A stretch of 9,856 nt of DNA from a virus (IMGVR_UViG_2695420526_000009); one strand, 5' to 3'; shown: positions 184-9,317, counted from the stretch's first letter. Numbers and translations: made by a program. The notes: a model not told the origin generated them from the letters alone.

Positions 184-1266
184 TCATTTTCTCTGGCTGA
201 TCTTTACCGGATAACCATCCCGAAGATCAATTAAGTGCTCCGGTTCAGAAGCAAACCATGCATAAGATCCCCACGCCAATTCTGGTATTGCCTTTTTAAA
301 AGGCAGAGCACTTCTGTCCATAAATGCCGTAAGGAATGCAAGATTTTTCTCGCTGAACCCAGCGTCAATAGCCAAATGAGTGAGAGTAACTTTTCGTTCC
401 CTGTTTATAGGCCCATCTGTCGCAACTACTTCAGTGAAAACTACAAGCATGTCCGAACCCGTTCGGTCCTCTCCCAAATCAATCAAAATAATATCTGGAA
501 GTGCTTTTGAGGCATCAATATTCAGCCCCAATGCTTTTGCCAATACATCATCCTGAGCAACAACTTTATTCCCGGATTCAGACAACCAGAGCACAGTTGG
601 ATTCTTAAGAAAATTAGGAGCAAAAACTTCGATGACGGCCTTAGCTATTGTACTTGACGGGCCCGGAGCTAAAGTTCTCTTCTCTCCATTTGGGAAAGTG
701 ACGACTACGGCATCAGCAGCAATCACTGCCCCTGATTTCAATAAACGCAACCTAGCAAGAGCGGCTTTGTTCAAATGATTTTCTTGCCAGGAACTTATTG
801 CACTCAGCAGCGAATCTCCTTCAAGCCCGGCATCAAAGAGTGCTGCAAAAGAGCGATTCAAACTGTAACGAGGACGAGAGGATGTGGTGGGTATACCTTT
901 ACGCTCAACAATTGCATTGCAAGGTATTAGGCCATTTTTTATAGTTTCATCACGTATTGGCTCACGCGTATTTTCCGCATACCATGCATCAGCAGGCCTT
1001 ATCTTTTGTTTAGAGAAAGTCATCTTTACCCAGCTTTCTCTGGACGCATCATCAGTAAGAGCAGCCTGCGAATCTCCCATACTTACAACCTGGCTGGGCC
1101 TTATCCATCGCCCCAGCCCCTCAACCGCACCAGCATAAAACATGACAAAAATTGTTTTTGCAGCTATTTCCCGAATTAAATATCCACGATTCTCAGTCCC
1201 TTCAGGGAAAATTAATTGTAATCTTTCCCGGATAACATTCAATGGGGGAACAACAGGCAGATTCAT
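184..1266 (-). CDS. Putative Type II restriction endonuclease (BsuBI/PstI-like), 360 aa
   Basis: Uninterrupted 360-aa ORF. Its ATG (1266) overlaps the stop of the upstream methyltransferase in an ATGA junction (1263-1266), indicating translational coupling. Position immediately downstream of an N6-adenine MTase fits an M-R operon. BsuBI/PstI family assignment is from recalled similarity of the N-terminal region, not a search; no PD-(D/E)xK motif was positively identified by eye. Confidence 0.55.
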   Translation of the reverse strand: MNLPVVPPLNVIRERLQLIFPEGTENRGYLIREIAAKTIFVMFYAGAVEGLGRWIRPSQVVSMGDSQAALTDDASRESWVKMTFSKQKIRPADAWYAENTREPIRDETIKNGLIPCNAIVERKGIPTTSSRPRYSLNRSFAALFDAGLEGDSLLSAISSWQENHLNKAALARLRLLKSGAVIAADAVVVTFPNGEKRTLAPGPSSTIAKAVIEVFAPNFLKNPTVLWLSESGNKVVAQDDVLAKALGLNIDASKALPDIILIDLGEDRTGSDMLVVFTEVVATDGPINRERKVTLTHLAIDAGFSEKNLAFLTAFMDRSALPFKKAIPELAWGSYAWFASEPEHLIDLRDGYPVKISQRK

Positions 1267-3095
1267 GCAATCATCACTCCATAGAAACCAGCGATAGTTC
1301 TCTCAATAATCCGTCTGTGGACGCCAGCATCAATTAACGATTGAATCTCCATCACCTGCTCCAGAGAAGGCAACGGGATTGAATTCAATTCATAGGCCGA
1401 AACAGCAACACTTCCGCTTATACACCTGAACGCCCGATCGACAACATGCGAATTAAGTAGCATATCAATAACATCAGGGCGAACCGCAGAGAACAATCCG
1501 TTTGAATATACAATATTAATATGGTTTTCAACTACTACGCCACCAGTTTCATCTATAAATCCCTGAGGTAAAATTGCCGCTAAAATCCTTCTGTCCTGTT
1601 CCTTCGATGTTGTCCGCTGAACAAGCACACATTCAGATTTTGTCACAAGGAAACCCTGTTGTGGGGTTATATCGATATAGGGAACATGATTTTTTCTGTC
1701 TGCACTAAAACGAAAACCAGCTGAAGTTATTGATTCCGCCCAGACTAATGGGTAGCTATTTTTTCCTTTCGTCGTACGCAACTGCGACTTAAATCGATTC
1801 CAGACTAACTGACCTGTAGAGACTGAGTATCCCAGATCAGCTAAACGCGTAGACATCTGTTTTAATACATTAAGAAAACAGGCATCATCTTTAACGCGTG
1901 GCAAAAGCCACGTTGCTCCACCTTTTTCTATATCAACATTACCTATTTTCTCAATTTTTGCTTTGTTCAACCCCTTAGGGACAAGTGAGGATACCTGGGC
2001 CCGAACTTTATGTTCTCCCGCCTTGAATGCTGTCAACATTGTTTCCTGGAGAACATCGTCAAAGACCCCATCCCTGTCAGTGACGAAATCAAGGGCATAC
2101 GGAGTAGTTTTTTCGGTCAAAAGGGTTCGCAGCGCGGTGAAATACTGCCCACCAAGAAAAGAAGTTGGCGTAAGAAATGCAATAACTCCTGTTTTCTCTT
2201 TAACCATGCGAACAGCTAAGTCGGTGAACAATCCATATAGATTTGCATGACCAAATAACGAACGAGAATATTTTTCTCTCGTTTTAATATCGAGAGTGAC
2301 ACGTCCGTAAGGCGGATTCCCTACCACAAGATCATAACCAGAAAATTTATCTTGCTGAAGCGCATCAGCAACAATAATTGTATCTTCAGGCAATCTACGT
2401 TTTACCTTTACACATAGTGGCATTAGTACAGATTCGAGCAATACCAAACTCATCCAAGCCGCAAATGGATCGATCTCTATCCCCTTTAAACGACGACTGA
2501 TTCTCCTCAACATCCATTCAGGGGAAGACCCCTTGTCTTTTTTTAACATTCGAATGGCTACTGGTGCCAAAAATGCACCGCCACCACACGCAGGATCAAT
2601 AACCGATGCATGAGAAAAATCAACACCAGACTTTTCAGCCAGGTCCAAGAGACGCGCTACCAAAGGTGGGGGGGTATAGTAAGCCCCCAATTCCGAACGG
2701 TAAGCGGATGGCAGCATTACCGTATAAATTGACCCAATCAGATATCCAGCGTCCTCCGCCGGAAATTGAGCAATAAGCTCACCTGTTCGTTCAGCGAGCT
2801 CGCGTGCATCACATGGAATGTCTTCTATGTAAACAGTGTGCGGTACTGCCCTCATTTTAATGCTGCTTTTTTGCTTTTTTGCAAGGGTATCCCAATATGC
2901 AGCTACGATGCTGAAGCAGTATGAGCGGGCATGCATCAACCTTGACTGCCCGGTTTTGTAATTGCCCGCATAACCTTTGGCCATGGCTTTACAAGTTTGA
3001 TATCTTTCCAGATTAGAAAACTCATTATCTGTAAAAAAATCAAAATGTTGCACATTCATAATGTAAAATCCTAATGTATCAAACATGCGGGCCAT
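1263..3095 (-). CDS. N6-adenine DNA methyltransferase, gamma class (Eco57I/PstI-like amino-MTase), 610 aa
   Basis: Translation contains GAYYTP (aa ~137-142), SAM-binding motif I VIDPACGGGAFL (aa 165-176, nt 2577-2597 verified by back-translation) and catalytic motif IV VVGNPPYGR (aa 257-265, NPPY at nt 2307-2318 verified). Motif I preceding motif IV is the gamma-class order. Start is ambiguous: ATG 3095 has no clear SD; an in-frame ATG 12 codons downstream (MNVQ...) has AGGA 9 nt upstream. Confidence 0.85.
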   Translation of the reverse strand: MARMFDTLGFYIMNVQHFDFFTDNEFSNLERYQTCKAMAKGYAGNYKTGQSRLMHARSYCFSIVAAYWDTLAKKQKSSIKMRAVPHTVYIEDIPCDARELAERTGELIAQFPAEDAGYLIGSIYTVMLPSAYRSELGAYYTPPPLVARLLDLAEKSGVDFSHASVIDPACGGGAFLAPVAIRMLKKDKGSSPEWMLRRISRRLKGIEIDPFAAWMSLVLLESVLMPLCVKVKRRLPEDTIIVADALQQDKFSGYDLVVGNPPYGRVTLDIKTREKYSRSLFGHANLYGLFTDLAVRMVKEKTGVIAFLTPTSFLGGQYFTALRTLLTEKTTPYALDFVTDRDGVFDDVLQETMLTAFKAGEHKVRAQVSSLVPKGLNKAKIEKIGNVDIEKGGATWLLPRVKDDACFLNVLKQMSTRLADLGYSVSTGQLVWNRFKSQLRTTKGKNSYPLVWAESITSAGFRFSADRKNHVPYIDITPQQGFLVTKSECVLVQRTTSKEQDRRILAAILPQGFIDETGGVVVENHINIVYSNGLFSAVRPDVIDMLLNSHVVDRAFRCISGSVAVSAYELNSIPLPSLEQVMEIQSLIDAGVHRRIIERTIAGFYGVMIA

Positions 3096-3723: not shown

Positions 3724-4113
3724 TCACAGTACCGCCTCCTGAAAATCACCCTGATAGAAAGCCGGTACACGCTGCATAACTTCACTCTTCCGGCACTCGC
3801 GACAGATTATGTTCTGATGTCTGTCGTAGCGGCGTATTTCTCCGTCCGGTAATGACCAGATAAGGTCCGGATCAACCACAGATGGTTTCTTCAGCTTTGC
3901 CCTCGAGAGTTTTTTGCGGGCGTTTTGCCAGTCCTTACGCGCCTGTTCAGACGGGAATAACCCGTAACCAGAGTTGTATACATCGCCACTGGCAACCAGC
4001 TCTCTGGCGAGAACACTCATCAGATATCTTGTCGCACCTGTCTTGGCTTCCAGTTGCCGCAACGTCTCGCGACCGCTCAGACGTACAAGTTCAACAACCT
4101 GCCCTTTAATTTT
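3724..4113 (-). pseudogene. 5'-truncated copy of a phage gene (paralog of 4249-4431), N-terminus replaced by an IS end
   Basis: Reading frame is open from the IS boundary (4113) to the stop at 3724; it encodes ...KIKGQVVELVRLSGRETLRQLEAKTGATRYLMSVLARELVASGDVYNSGY..., matching the N-terminal region of the gene at 4249-4431 but lacking its first ~11 codons, which are replaced by IS sequence. Confidence 0.6.
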
Positions 4114-4238
4114 TGAGGTAGCCTGAGTTTAACGGACACTCCTTCCTGAAATAGAATGGCATCAGAAGGAGCTAATAATGAGCAGAAAAACCCAACGTTA
4201 CTCTAAAGAGTTCAAAGCCGAAGCTGTCAGAACGGTTC
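4114..4238 (+). mobile_element. IS3-family insertion sequence left end (IS600-like), truncated by the scaffold gap
   Basis: Begins with TG (TGAGGTAGCCTGAGTTTAACGGACAC...), followed by an SD (AAGGAG) and ATG at 4178 opening orfA (MSRKTQRYSKEFKAEAVRTV...), which I recall as the IS600 OrfA N-terminus. The element stops at the N-run, typical of assembly collapse at a repeat. Confidence 0.75.
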
Positions 4239-4248
4239 NNNNNNNNNN
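4239..4248. other. Assembly/scaffold gap (10 N)
   Basis: Ten consecutive n characters in the sequence. Confidence 1.
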
Positions 4249-4431
4249 GTAGCCAGAGTTGTATACATCCCCACTGGCAACCAGCTCTCTGGCGAGAACG
4301 CTTATTAAATATCTTGTCGCCCCGGTTTTAGCTTCCAGTTGTCGTAACGTCTCGCGCCCACTCTGGCGTACGAGTTCAACAACCTGCCCCTTAATTTTTT
4401 CCCGCTCTTCCTGTGTAAATACTTTTGCCAT
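4249..4431 (-). CDS. Hypothetical phage protein, N-terminal 61 codons (partial; 3' end lost at gap)
   Basis: ATG at 4431 (MAKVFTQEEREKIKGQVVELVRQSGRETLRQLEAKTGATRYLISVLARELVASGDVYNSGY), GGGGG SD-like stretch upstream, 15 nt after the stop of the preceding gene. The track ORF 4198-4446 reads through the N-run and IS and is an artefact. Confidence 0.6.
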
Positions 4432-4446
4432 AAGCGCCCCCGGCAA

Positions 4447-7082: not shown

Positions 7083-7508
7083 TCAATGTACTGCCACAGC
7101 ATTTCCTGCCGGGCCACCACGGTTCATCTGATTGAAACCGGCGATTGCCACTGCGACAAAATCATCAGCGTCTCTCACCAGTCGTTCATGCGTCTCCACC
7201 AGTTCCCGAAAATAAGCTGAACTGTGGCTGCGCATTCGAGCCACCAGCGGAGGTGGCATTGCCCTTTCGATCGCAGGTAACAACGCCTGAATTTTTTCAA
7301 CAGCGTCAGGGGTGTCTTTATCCAGCCAACGGAAAATCTTTTGGGTGTTGAGATAAAGCGTGTTGTGCTTGCTGTCGTTATGCAGAACCGGAAACGTCAT
7401 TCCCAGTTCGAAATAAACCCTGGTTATTTCAGCTGCCGGAACTTTTTCACCGTCCGGATGCGCCCAGGCTTTCATCGCCATGCGGATGTGTTCATGCTTG
7501 ATTTTCAT
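7083..7508 (-). CDS. YdaT-like protein (CII-position regulator of Rac-type prophages), 141 aa
   Basis: Immediately downstream of the Cro-like gene with ATGA overlap (7505-7508) and upstream of the O-like gene, the position and size of Rac YdaT. Assignment is by synteny and size, not a search. Confidence 0.65.
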   Translation of the reverse strand: MKIKHEHIRMAMKAWAHPDGEKVPAAEITRVYFELGMTFPVLHNDSKHNTLYLNTQKIFRWLDKDTPDAVEKIQALLPAIERAMPPPLVARMRSHSSAYFRELVETHERLVRDADDFVAVAIAGFNQMNRGGPAGNAVAVH

Positions 7509-7768
7509 GAATCAACCCCCGCCGATGGTTGTGTGTTAGCCTGAAACTCAGCAGGCAAGCCGTCAGTTGGGTTGGGGTAGGTTTTACTGTCAATCTCATG
7601 TGGGGTCACCACCCATCCCGTTGCTTCACACCAACGTAATATTTTTTCTCCTGTAAGTTTTGCACGCCCCGTTATAACGTGGCTGACCATCCCTTGGGAT
7701 GCGCCAACAATCTCAGCAAATGAACTCTGGGTTATATGAAAATGATGCAAATATTCTCCAAGATTCAT
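7505..7768 (-). CDS. Cro-like HTH protein (XRE family; YdaS-like), 87 aa
   Basis: HTH-like segment QSSFAEIVGASQGMVSHVITGRAKLTGEKILRW; divergently placed against the repressor gene. ATG 7768 chosen (MNLGEY...); the track's longer start at 7795 is a TTG. Confidence 0.7.
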   Translation of the reverse strand: MNLGEYLHHFHITQSSFAEIVGASQGMVSHVITGRAKLTGEKILRWCEATGWVVTPHEIDSKTYPNPTDGLPAEFQANTQPSAGVDS

Positions 7769-7803
7769 AATCCGCCCTATGTGATGTGTTACCAATGCAT
7801 AAT

Positions 7804-7845
7804 TAATAGCACTGTTATTTTTAAAAGTAAATAGTGATACTATTT
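7804..7845. promoter_or_regulatory. Divergent switch region with two operator-like palindromes
   Basis: Perfect palindrome AAATAGT-GAT-ACTATTT at 7829-7845 and imperfect TAATAGC-ACT-GTTATTT at 7804-7820, in the 111-bp AT-rich spacer between the divergent repressor and Cro-like starts. Confidence 0.5.
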
Positions 7846-7879
7846 CAAAGTGATTAGCAATCTTATTAGAATTGGATGT

Positions 7880-8380
7880 ATGAAAAGAAAATCATTGTCA
7901 GACACCGACCTCAACGCCGCCAGAAGACTGAAAGAAATCTGGATGGCAAAGAAATCTCAGTTGGGATTGACTCAGGAACGTGCGGCGGAAATTATGGGGT
8001 TTTCAACACAAGGGGCGGTAAGTCACTACCTAAATGGTCAAACCCCACTAAACCTTGAGGCTGTTCTAAAGTTTGCTGGCTTACTGAAAGTTCCCCCTGA
8101 GTCAATCAGGCCAGACATGGTAGATTTGCTGCAAATTGCAAGGATGTATTGTCGAGAACCACAGCAAGATAACATAGTCGCATTACCAGCAGACACAGAA
8201 CAAACAGAGGATGAACTACCGTTTGCCGTAGAGCCGATGGAACGAGATTTAATCCATACGTTCAGAGCTTTTCCGAAAGAAGATCAAGAACACATGCTTC
8301 AGGAGATGAAAGATAAAAAAGAATCAATGGATCGTACGGTTGCGCGGTGGTTAGCTGCACAAAAAGGCCGTCGCGCCTAA
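7880..8380 (+). CDS. Prophage repressor, XRE-family HTH (RacR-like), 166 aa
   Basis: HTH LGLTQERAAEIMGFSTQGAVSHYLNGQTPL near the N-terminus; no S24 peptidase (LexA-like) domain visible, consistent with RacR-type rather than cI-type repressors. ATG 7880 (MKRKSLSD...) preferred over the track's GTG at 7850. Confidence 0.8.
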   Translation: MKRKSLSDTDLNAARRLKEIWMAKKSQLGLTQERAAEIMGFSTQGAVSHYLNGQTPLNLEAVLKFAGLLKVPPESIRPDMVDLLQIARMYCREPQQDNIVALPADTEQTEDELPFAVEPMERDLIHTFRAFPKEDQEHMLQEMKDKKESMDRTVARWLAAQKGRRA

Positions 8381-8399
8381 ATCAGAGGAGATATGTAAA

Positions 8400-8594
8400 A
8401 TGAGTACAGTCCTTTCCCCAATGGTTTCAGAATTTGAGACAGTTGAGCAAGAAAATAGTTACAACGAATGGCTGCGGGCCAAAGTAGCAGCAAGCCTCGC
8501 GGATCCCCGCCCGGCGATTCCGCATGATGAGGTAATGGCGGAAATGGAACAAATTATTGCCCAAATTGCTGCTGCAACTCACAGAGGTGAATAA
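8400..8594 (+). CDS. Putative type II antitoxin (partner of the ParE/RelE-family toxin), 64 aa
   Basis: Small acidic ORF with SD GAGGAG 9 nt upstream; its TAA stop overlaps the toxin ATG (TAATG at 8592-8596). Antitoxin family (ParD/Phd-like) not determinable by eye. Confidence 0.6.
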   Translation: MSTVLSPMVSEFETVEQENSYNEWLRAKVAASLADPRPAIPHDEVMAEMEQIIAQIAAATHRGE

Positions 8595-8884
8595 TGTTAC
8601 CCGTTTTATGGCTACCATCTGCTCGTGATGATTTGCGCCAGATCGTAGCCTACATAGCTAAAGAAAATCCCGCGGCAGCACGCAGAATGAAAATTCGAAT
8701 TGAAACATCCGTTTTGCCGCTCACAGAGCATCCTTACCTGTATCCTCCAAGCGAGCGAGTTCTTGGTCTTCGTGAAATTGTAACTCATCCTAACTACATC
8801 ATCCTTTACCGAGTAACAGCATCAAGCATAGAAGTAGTAAATATTGTGCATTCTCGAAGACAGTATCCAGGCAAAAACAGTTAA
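8594..8884 (+). CDS. ParE/RelE-superfamily toxin, 96 aa
   Basis: Size, basic C-terminus and family-typical pattern (N-terminal W...ARDDLRQIVAYIA; C-terminal LREIV...YIILYRV...IEVVNIVHSRR) plus the overlapping upstream small gene. Confidence 0.75.
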   Translation: MLPVLWLPSARDDLRQIVAYIAKENPAAARRMKIRIETSVLPLTEHPYLYPPSERVLGLREIVTHPNYIILYRVTASSIEVVNIVHSRRQYPGKNS

Positions 8885-8898
8885 TTATTCCCGCCGAC

Positions 8899-8925
8899 AG
8901 AACCACCTTAGGGTGGTTTTTTCTT
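8899..8925 (+). terminator. Rho-independent terminator after the toxin gene
   Basis: Stem AACCACC (8901-8907) / GGTGGTT (8912-8918) with loop TTAG, followed by a T-run (TTTTTTCTT). Confidence 0.6.
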
Positions 8926-8939
8926 GCCCCAACAAAAAA

Positions 8940-8986
8940 CAATAGCGATGCTATTTACATCAAAAAAAAATAATGATGCTATTGTT
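8940..8986. promoter_or_regulatory. Second operator-like cluster (OL-like) with candidate rightward promoter
   Basis: Palindrome AATAGC-GAT-GCTATT at 8941-8955 and half-site copy AATAAT-GAT-GCTATT at 8969-8983, same consensus as the 7804-7845 sites. A TTTACA -35-like hexamer lies at 8954-8959; no convincing -10 was found. Confidence 0.45.
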
Positions 8987-9164
8987 TCAGGCGTCAACCC
9001 ACCCCGCCCCACAGAATGCAGGGCAATACTTCGAGTTACCAGACAGTGGTCAGGGGTTAAGTAGCCAGCCCGAGGCGTAAGAACATGACGGCAGGGTTCA
9101 ATCTTTAACTATGCAGCAGGTTTTTTGTTCCGCCACCCCGGCGTTAAGGGGAAATGAGGTCAGC

Positions 9165-9317
9165 ATGGATACTATCGATCTTGGCAACAACGAATCTCTG
9201 GTGTGCGGCGTGTTCCCTAACCAGGATGGAACGTTTACCGCCATGACGTATACCAAAAGCAAAACGTTTAAAACCGAATCTGGCGCGCGTTGCTGGTTAG
9301 CCAGAAACACTGACTGA
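9165..9317 (+). CDS. Small phage protein, 50 aa (YdaF-like by position)
   Basis: ATG 9165 with GAGG SD 5 nt upstream (MDTIDLGNNESLVCGVFPNQDGTFTAMTYTKSKTFKTESGARCWLARNTD). The track's longer start at 9111 lacks an SD. Confidence 0.55.
   Translation: MDTIDLGNNESLVCGVFPNQDGTFTAMTYTKSKTFKTESGARCWLARNTD

Follow-up and report, generated by a model that had tools for sequence, protein, structure and literature searches.

The closest described counterpart of the locus considered here is the immunity region of the prophage CP-933P (Sp12) of Escherichia coli O157:H7, which carries paaR2-paaA2-parE2 and ydaS-ydaT, and for which EMSA, DNase I footprinting, 5' RACE and gfp reporters have established a CI/Cro/CII-like bistable switch with OR- and OL-type operators (PMC8630535). 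The paaR2 mRNA of this prophage is leaderless by 5' RACE (PMC8630535), and its promoter PL933P, analogous to the PL-like promoter discussed below, is active and repressed about 100-fold by PaaR2 and by YdaS (PMC8630535, Jurenas et al.). Further, a recognition box for the CP-933P YdaT has been defined by footprinting (PMC9986795). Despite the footprints the exact recognition sequences of the switch were left open (PMC8630535), and the precedent is therefore incomplete in this respect. A second related arrangement is found in the Rac prophage of E. coli K-12, a cryptic lambdoid prophage in which RacR is divergent from ydaS-ydaT (PMC5700373), as are the corresponding genes here. Rac is likened to the present locus by description; it lacks PaaA/ParE cargo, RacR is not among the relatives found for the repressor described below, and the YdaS and YdaT proteins of CP-933P are themselves only 26% and 31% identical to those of Rac (PMC8630535).

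The locus lies in a stretch of viral DNA of 9,856 nucleotides (IMGVR_UViG_2695420526_000009), hereafter the window, within which a lambdoid (Rac/Qin/CP-933P-like) cryptic prophage has its immunity region at 7083-9317. The divergent repressor and Cro-like genes assumed in the original prediction are present, the former coding for a CI-like protein (plus strand) and the latter for an HTH protein (minus strand). Next to the cro-like gene lies ydaT, and the 111-bp divergent intergenic region, 7769-7879, separates the cro-like ATG (7768, minus strand) from the repressor ATG (7880). The RefSeq annotation of a 98%-identical E. coli locus agrees with the genes of the window, which, with their associated elements, are:

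7083-7508, minus strand: ydaT, encoding the CII-analogue regulator (Pfam YdaT_toxin; PDB 3c4r and 8bt1, E 4e-79 and 3e-70)
7498-7515: YdaT box TTGATT-N6-AATCAA (TTGATTTTCATGAATCAA), perfect and the sole match in the window, spanning the end of the cro-like gene (stop codon) and the start codon of ydaT
7505-7768, minus strand: Cro-like HTH protein of 87 aa, with a weak HTH_3 match, occupying the position of ydaS in CP-933P
7880-8380, plus strand: repressor of 166 aa, with a lambda-CI-like N-terminal arm and HTH, an acidic linker and a PaaR2-like C-terminal module
8400-8594, plus strand: paaA-like antitoxin (Pfam PaaA2; PDB PaaA2, E 1e-23)
8594-8884, plus strand: parE-like toxin (Pfam ParE_toxin; PDB ParE2, E 7e-37)
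8899-8927, plus strand: intrinsic terminator of the repressor operon (stem 8899-8907/8912-8920 with a U-run; MFE -15.1 kcal/mol, z -3.0; inverted repeat I20)

Gene order and orientation are as in CP-933P, and PaaA, ParE and YdaT are close homologues of their counterparts there. With a gap of 19 nt between repressor and paaA and an overlap of 1 nt between paaA and parE, the toxin-antitoxin cargo is predicted to be co-transcribed with the repressor. The terminator is conserved as CCACC..GGTGGTTTTTT in the five related loci that share this cargo (L001-L005), and a DUF1391/ydfA gene lies beyond it. The intergenic regions, 97 bp in CP-933P against 111 bp in the window, both present several dyads over back-to-back promoters, and in both the -10 element stands 6-7 nt before the repressor ATG. 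Likewise, both have a second operator cluster and a PL-type promoter just past parE, followed by the same flank (CAACCCACCCCGCCCCACAGAA...), and both have a YdaT box at the junction of the cro-like gene and ydaT; since its place is that of the footprinted OM site in CP-933P, by analogy the box in the window probably marks a PRE-like establishment promoter region.

The resemblance does not extend to the parts that recognize DNA. The DNA-binding domain of PaaR2 is unrelated in sequence to that of the window repressor, the Cro-like protein shows no sequence similarity to CP-933P YdaS, and the operator words of CP-933P are of the type GTTTAGTAA, as against AATAG-N5-CTATT in the window. The possibility that the window sites are simply the published CP-933P operator set was thus rejected, with both the DNA-binding parts of the regulators and the repeats being unrelated; it follows from these differences that the immunity specificity should differ, i.e., that the two prophages should be heteroimmune.

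Residues 2-81 of the repressor instead match the DNA-binding domain of lambda CI, including the basic N-terminal arm (1lmb, E 2.9e-9), the homology covering residues 3-81 of CI; the recognition helix reads TQGAVSHYLNG in the window and QSGVGALFNG in lambda. Pfam returned no Peptidase_S24 match for the repressor, whose final 44 residues show 52% identity to the PaaR2 C-terminus, so that it is not a full member of the CI/LexA family; in the absence of an S24 autoprotease, or RecA-cleavable, C-terminal domain, classical SOS induction is not expected. The protein is identical in sequence to Shigella sonnei proteins present in thousands of assemblies, and the phage collection searched holds no named phage with this repressor, the best match being lambda cI at 31%. 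Unlike in lambda, the HTH of the Cro-like protein is paralogous to the repressor domain, a situation known from phage 434 or P22: the two HTHs are 35% identical over 51 aa (E 2e-7) and have in common the recognition-helix core QGxVSH. The Cro-like helix, SQGMVSHV[IL][TN]GR, is conserved in eight related loci (L001-L008) and is replaced in L009, so that the Cro-like proteins co-vary with the sites described below. On account of these homologous HTHs with their common core, it is plausible that both proteins read the same half-site, much as repressor and Cro do in phages 434 and P22.

The candidate binding site is a 15-bp dyad, A[A/T]TAG(Y)-N3-(R)CTATT, of which the window has five copies, three in the intergenic region and two downstream of the repressor operon. 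The original prediction had pointed to a perfect 17-bp palindrome in the intergenic region, AAATAGTGATACTATTT at 7829-7845, and its sequence is as described, with perfect 7-bp arms flanking GAT; the conserved unit is, however, 15 bp with a freely variable centre rather than the full 17 bp. The imperfect copy that had been noted alongside it is present at 7805-7819, 25 bp away start to start, as is the recurrence near 8940-8986, which resolves into two sites (8941-8955 and 8969-8983). The earlier list of two intergenic sites, both of which hold up, was incomplete, as it lacked a third, weaker site at 7853-7867; the overlaps with promoters and the toxin-antitoxin cargo had likewise gone unnoticed. 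The five sites and the promoters with which they overlap are given below, scores being those of a weight matrix built from 24 sites in six related loci, with the window and its near-identical copies left out:

7805-7819: O1, AATAGCACTGTTATT, 20.8 bits, overlapping the -10 of the predicted PR-like promoter, in a place analogous to lambda OR1
7830-7844: O2, conserved 15-mer core AATAGTGATACTATT, a perfect dyad, 17.1 bits, in a place analogous to lambda OR2
7853-7867: O3, ATTAGCAATCTTATT, 10.2 bits and fifth in the window, between the -35 and -10 of the repressor promoter
8941-8955: OL-type site a, AATAGCGATGCTATT, a perfect dyad, 21.5 bits and the best in the window, overlapping the -35 of the PL-like promoter
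8969-8983: OL-type site b, AATAATGATGCTATT, 17.6 bits, overlapping the PL-like -10
7803-7831, minus strand: predicted PR-like promoter of cro-like/ydaT, with -35 TTTACT (7831-7826), 17 nt, and TGC plus -10 TATTAA (7811-7803)
7844-7872, plus strand: PRM-like promoter of the repressor operon from the promoter scan, with -35 TTCAAA (7844-7849), 17 nt, and -10 TAGAAT (7867-7872)
8954-8985, plus strand: putative PL-like promoter, facing the ydfA/dicB-type early-left genes, with -35 TTTACA (8954-8959) and TGC plus -10 TATTGT (8977-8985)

Searching the window with the pattern AATAGYGATRCTATT, allowing up to 3 mismatches, returned 7 strand-matches at 4 places against 0.67 expected, a count reached by none of 200 shuffles. 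Ranked by the relatives-only matrix, the sites starting at 8941, 7805, 8969, 7830 and 7853 take the first five places in that order, and the sixth-best score across the 9.9-kb window is 4.3 bits. Shuffled windows contain a mean of 0.27 matches scoring at least 10.2 bits, for which reason the score of O3 does not by itself reach significance; in its favour are its placement 23 bp past O2 and its conservation across loci, with stronger copies at the same position in L006-L008, L019 and L021. Around 8900-9050 nothing else exceeds 4.3 bits with this matrix, i.e., no third OL-type site was detected.

The layout of these sites resembles that of lambda. In both, three tandem dyads lie over the PR -10 (a predicted promoter in the window), over the PR -35 and upstream of PRM, and inside PRM, with a second cluster at PL; the starts of O1, O2 and O3 (7805, 7830, 7853) give spacings of 25 and 23 bp, the lambda operators being spaced at 24 and 23 bp. 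O2 shares bases with the PR-like -35 and borders on that of the repressor promoter; it is centred at about -43 from the repressor ATG/TSS, and O3 takes the place of OR3. The slot between repressor gene and OL that is filled by rexAB in lambda corresponds to the accessory cargo slot in the window. Differences from lambda are that only two OL-type sites were detected in the window, that the CII analogue is YdaT, and that the sites, of the form AATAG-N5-CTATT, depart from the 17-bp lambda operator consensus TATCACCGCCAGTGGTA. Lambda-type 17-mers (TATCAC..GTGATA), tried in view of the lambda-like repressor domain and of the GTGAT words at 7781, 7835 and 7850, gave no consistent fit, and these GTGAT words are unconserved in relatives.

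The promoters differ in how they were recognized. The PR-like promoter is put forward as a prediction, since the consensus scan, which requires a T at position 6 of the -10, did not pass it; the same TTTAC[A/T]/TGnTATT.. arrangement recurs in the intergenic regions of relatives. Its TATTAA and the TATTGT of the PL-like promoter are both imperfect -10s, and the scan called neither, with TT[TG]AC./TATTGT being conserved in the aligned OL regions of relatives. The two promoters have a common site/-35/site/-10 construction. In the case of the repressor promoter, the -10 ends 7 nt upstream of the ATG, and a TA[GA]AAT-type -10 is invariant at 6-7 nt before the ATG in nine aligned loci; at the same distance L019 has TAGAAT, L021 has TAAAAT and L020 has the variant TATGAT, and CP-933P paaR2 has GATAAT 6 nt before its ATG. 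With the -10 so near the start codon, and given the paaR2 precedent, the repressor mRNA is predicted to be leaderless, which is likely by analogy and would be a further point of agreement with the leaderless repressor mRNA of lambda. A promoter-like match returned by the scan on the minus strand at 8997-8970 (TTGACG-16-CATTAT) was not adopted, as its -35 lies in the flank common to heteroimmune prophages and is variable there (TTGATG, TTGGTA). A role of the dyads as RNA elements was also set aside: no Rfam match falls under the sites, and their 6-bp AT-rich arms are too weak for a hairpin.

Examination of related loci places these sites in an evolutionary setting. Loci with the N-terminal domain of the window repressor number 11, namely L001-L008 together with L019 (Citrobacter), L020 (Yersinia) and L021 (Rouxiella), which were kept out of the weight matrix; their sources are E. 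coli, E. albertii, Salmonella, Citrobacter, Yersinia, Rouxiella and metagenomes. In all 11, two sites precede the repressor ATG, at -73 to -75 and at -49/-50, and there is usually another at -26/-27; all 11 also have a second pair beyond the repressor operon, 24-26 bp apart (26-28 bp in S. sonnei-type assemblies). Among generic HTH control loci, a paired site was found in none of 12 and no match at all in 10 of 12; nor does the matrix find any match in L009 or in the CP-933P locus (L018), both of which have the C-terminal module and PaaA/ParE with another HTH. Alignment of the intergenic regions of nine loci shows the outer 4 bp of each half-site (A[A/T]TA ... TATT) of O1, O2 and O3 to be invariant, these being AATA/TATT in O2 and ATTA/TATT in O3, while the central 3-5 bases vary freely (GAT, ATC, ATT, AAC, AAT, TAT) and the 36 nt adjoining the cro-like gene have only 2 invariant columns. 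Between the window and the 98%-identical L001, where O2 (8429-8443) equals AATAGCGATGCTATT, the change is symmetric, AATAGT..ACTATT against AATAGC..GCTATT; the substitutions fall at dyad positions 6 and 10 (T..A versus C..G), and a one-sided intermediate occurs in L011. In sum, the presence of the sites is established and goes beyond chance, their positions are conserved, and they occur together with the DNA-binding domains.

The remainder of the repressor and of its operon is far less constant. The repressors of these loci are 154, 156, 166 or 244-255 aa long with differing C-termini. Database relatives with the same N-terminal domain fall into size classes of 166 aa (75-90% identity), of 153-156 aa, with another C-terminus, in Salmonella, Yersinia and Rouxiella, and of 244-255 aa, with a second HTH inserted. 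The C-terminal module of the window repressor, in turn, recurs in PaaR2 and in 132-aa proteins, all of which carry other HTH domains. The 244-255-aa repressors (P0013-P0023; L007 3001-3735, L008 3001-3768, L019 2501-3240) combine a CI-like N-terminus, a second HTH and the common C-terminal module, and the second HTH resembles the N-terminal part of PaaR-like proteins of 132 aa, such as that of L009; such tandem-HTH repressors might recognize two operator families or carry two immunity specificities. The cargo between repressor and second pair of sites is PaaA/ParE in L001-L005, HigB/HigA in L006, a HipA-like kinase pair in L007 and none in L008 and L019-L021 (L006 3612-4339 for HigB/HigA; L007 3787-5360 for HipA_2 plus DUF3037; window 8400-8884 for PaaA/ParE).

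Further, megablast against E. coli genomes reveals many prophages whose match to the window is limited to ydaT at the left and to sequence beyond about 8997 at the right, the regulators in between being different; in CP-933P the same right flank follows directly after its own PL. As similarity with heteroimmune prophages resumes at about 8997, past the downstream pair, both clusters of sites lie inside the exchangeable immunity cassette, as expected of specificity determinants. The block conserved across heteroimmune prophages (8997-9100; L018 3476-3560) starts right after the PL-like -10 (CAACCCACCCCGCCCCACAGAA..GGGCAATACTTCGAGTTACC..) and would form the 5' leader of the early-left transcript; it could be a nut-like or other RNA element, and it has no Rfam match.

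These observations and the analogy with the described switches make it very probable that the palindromes serve as operators in the immunity switch of a lambdoid prophage, being read by dimers of the CI-like repressor, and in all likelihood by the Cro-like protein too. The operator reading of the original prediction is thereby supported, in that the sites follow the DNA-binding domains, retain a conserved layout and have a precedent in CP-933P. As repressor and Cro-like protein always co-occur, comparative data cannot tell the binding of one from that of the other. It could be that only one of them uses the dyads and that the other binds different sequences in the region, in line with the proposal, made for CP-933P, of two types of repeat that overlap, for PaaR2 and YdaS (PMC8630535), and both HTH types do accompany the motif in every case. 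This is nonetheless improbable: the two HTHs are homologous down to the QGxVSH core, and conservation in the intergenic region is confined to O1-O3 and the promoter hexamers, so that a further set of operators could hardly be accommodated there.

Considerably less probable still is that the palindromes are autoregulatory operators of the PaaA-ParE complex in the manner of canonical type II systems. The sites do stand upstream of an operon containing paaA-parE, and type II toxin-antitoxin complexes usually bind palindromes in their own promoters (PMC8630535). However, the motif is kept without PaaA/ParE in L006 (HigBA), L007 (HipA-like) and L008, L019, L020 and L021 (no toxin-antitoxin genes), and is absent from L009 and L018, both of which do have PaaA/ParE; this distribution effectively refutes autoregulation by the complex. 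Additionally, PaaA matches only the 33-residue toxin-binding motif of PaaA2 and has no DNA-binding domain, and three-component systems encode DNA binding separately (PMC3141249). That the repeats arose by chance in AT-rich promoter DNA, or are host nucleoid protein sites with no specific regulator, finds some footing in the AT-richness of region and half-site and in the part of the site that doubles as a promoter element (TGCTATT, extended -10), but chance origin is excluded by the shuffle statistics, and the reading as a whole is highly implausible given that positions are conserved across genera while neighbouring bases drift, and that the sites move together with the immunity cassette, prophages with different regulators having other repeats in their place.

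If the dyads are indeed operators of the immunity switch, its working can be outlined; we infer binding, site preference, cooperativity, activation, looping, the exact transcription starts and the leaderless mRNA from sequence and analogy. Repressor dimers, and very probably Cro-like dimers, would bind the 15-bp dyad. With O1 covering the -10 and O2 the -35 of the PR-like promoter, which would serve cro-like, ydaT and the replication genes, these overlaps imply that binding of repressor to O1 and O2 would silence the lytic-side operon. O2, centred near -43, would also adjoin the weak -35 of the repressor promoter on its upstream side, and lambda CI bound at OR2 activates PRM from about this position; repressor so bound could stimulate its own leaderless transcript, which would include paaA-parE. 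Occupancy of O3, inside the repressor promoter, by the Cro-like protein or by excess repressor would shut off the repressor operon. As the downstream pair covers the -35 and -10 of the PL-like promoter, the repressor would silence both early operons, and OR-OL looping through the PaaR2-like C-terminal oligomerization module is possible.

The downstream part of this layout is affected by a homopolymer. An A-run between the two downstream sites (8962-8970) is A9 in the window and A6 in the E. coli locus L001; among assemblies with an identical repressor (L010-L017) it is A7, A8 (five assemblies) or A9 (two assemblies). Its length sets both the spacer of the PL-like promoter (17-20 nt) and the spacing of the downstream sites (25-28 bp). 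In the window, on account of the A9 run, the spacer is 20 nt, as against 17 nt in L001, and the sites are 28 bp apart. Such a spacing and spacer would impair cooperativity and promoter function, and the downstream part of the switch may therefore be decayed in the window. The variation could reflect promoter decay, slippage, or homopolymer sequencing error or noise. An unlikely proposal is that the A-run is a slippage-prone tuning element; as the run sets the spacer and operator phasing, changes in its length could then switch or attenuate the early-left ydfA/dicB-type genes independently of the repressor. Separately, one DNA-binding domain is freely shuffled within the family among at least three C-terminal architectures.

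Elsewhere in the window, the prophage carries on the minus strand a BsuBI/PstI-family restriction endonuclease (184-1266) and an Eco57I/N6-adenine methylase-like protein (1263-3095), which together (184-3095) look like a restriction-modification moron. Additionally, a run of 10 N (4239-4248), an assembly gap, interrupts a partial duplicate of a DUF977 gene (3724-4446). The peptide RQLEAKTGATRYL..SVLARELVASGDVYNSGY is present in both 3724-4062 and 4198-4446, and its duplication around the gap suggests a collapsed repeat or an insertion there.

Taken on its sequence features, the window switch would be functionally of the lambda OR/OL type and architecturally of the CP-933P type (PaaR2/YdaS/YdaT), with an operator specificity that appears new; in the literature surveyed, coverage of which is incomplete, no description of this DNA-recognition specificity was found, including for paaR1 or the Shigella homologues. 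The element is of an ordinary kind and does not reveal a new kind of regulation. It does provide a defined operator sequence, together with an arrangement of promoters, for a prophage switch present in thousands of Shigella sonnei assemblies and, among complete E. coli genomes, in about 72 of 5,426, with a sister type in about 70 more; this switch would control a ParE-family gyrase-poison module. The locus further offers a clean natural example of operator specificity tracking the DNA-binding domain of the repressor while oligomerization domains and toxin-antitoxin cargo are swapped, and its layout predicts which of these prophages are homo-immune or hetero-immune.
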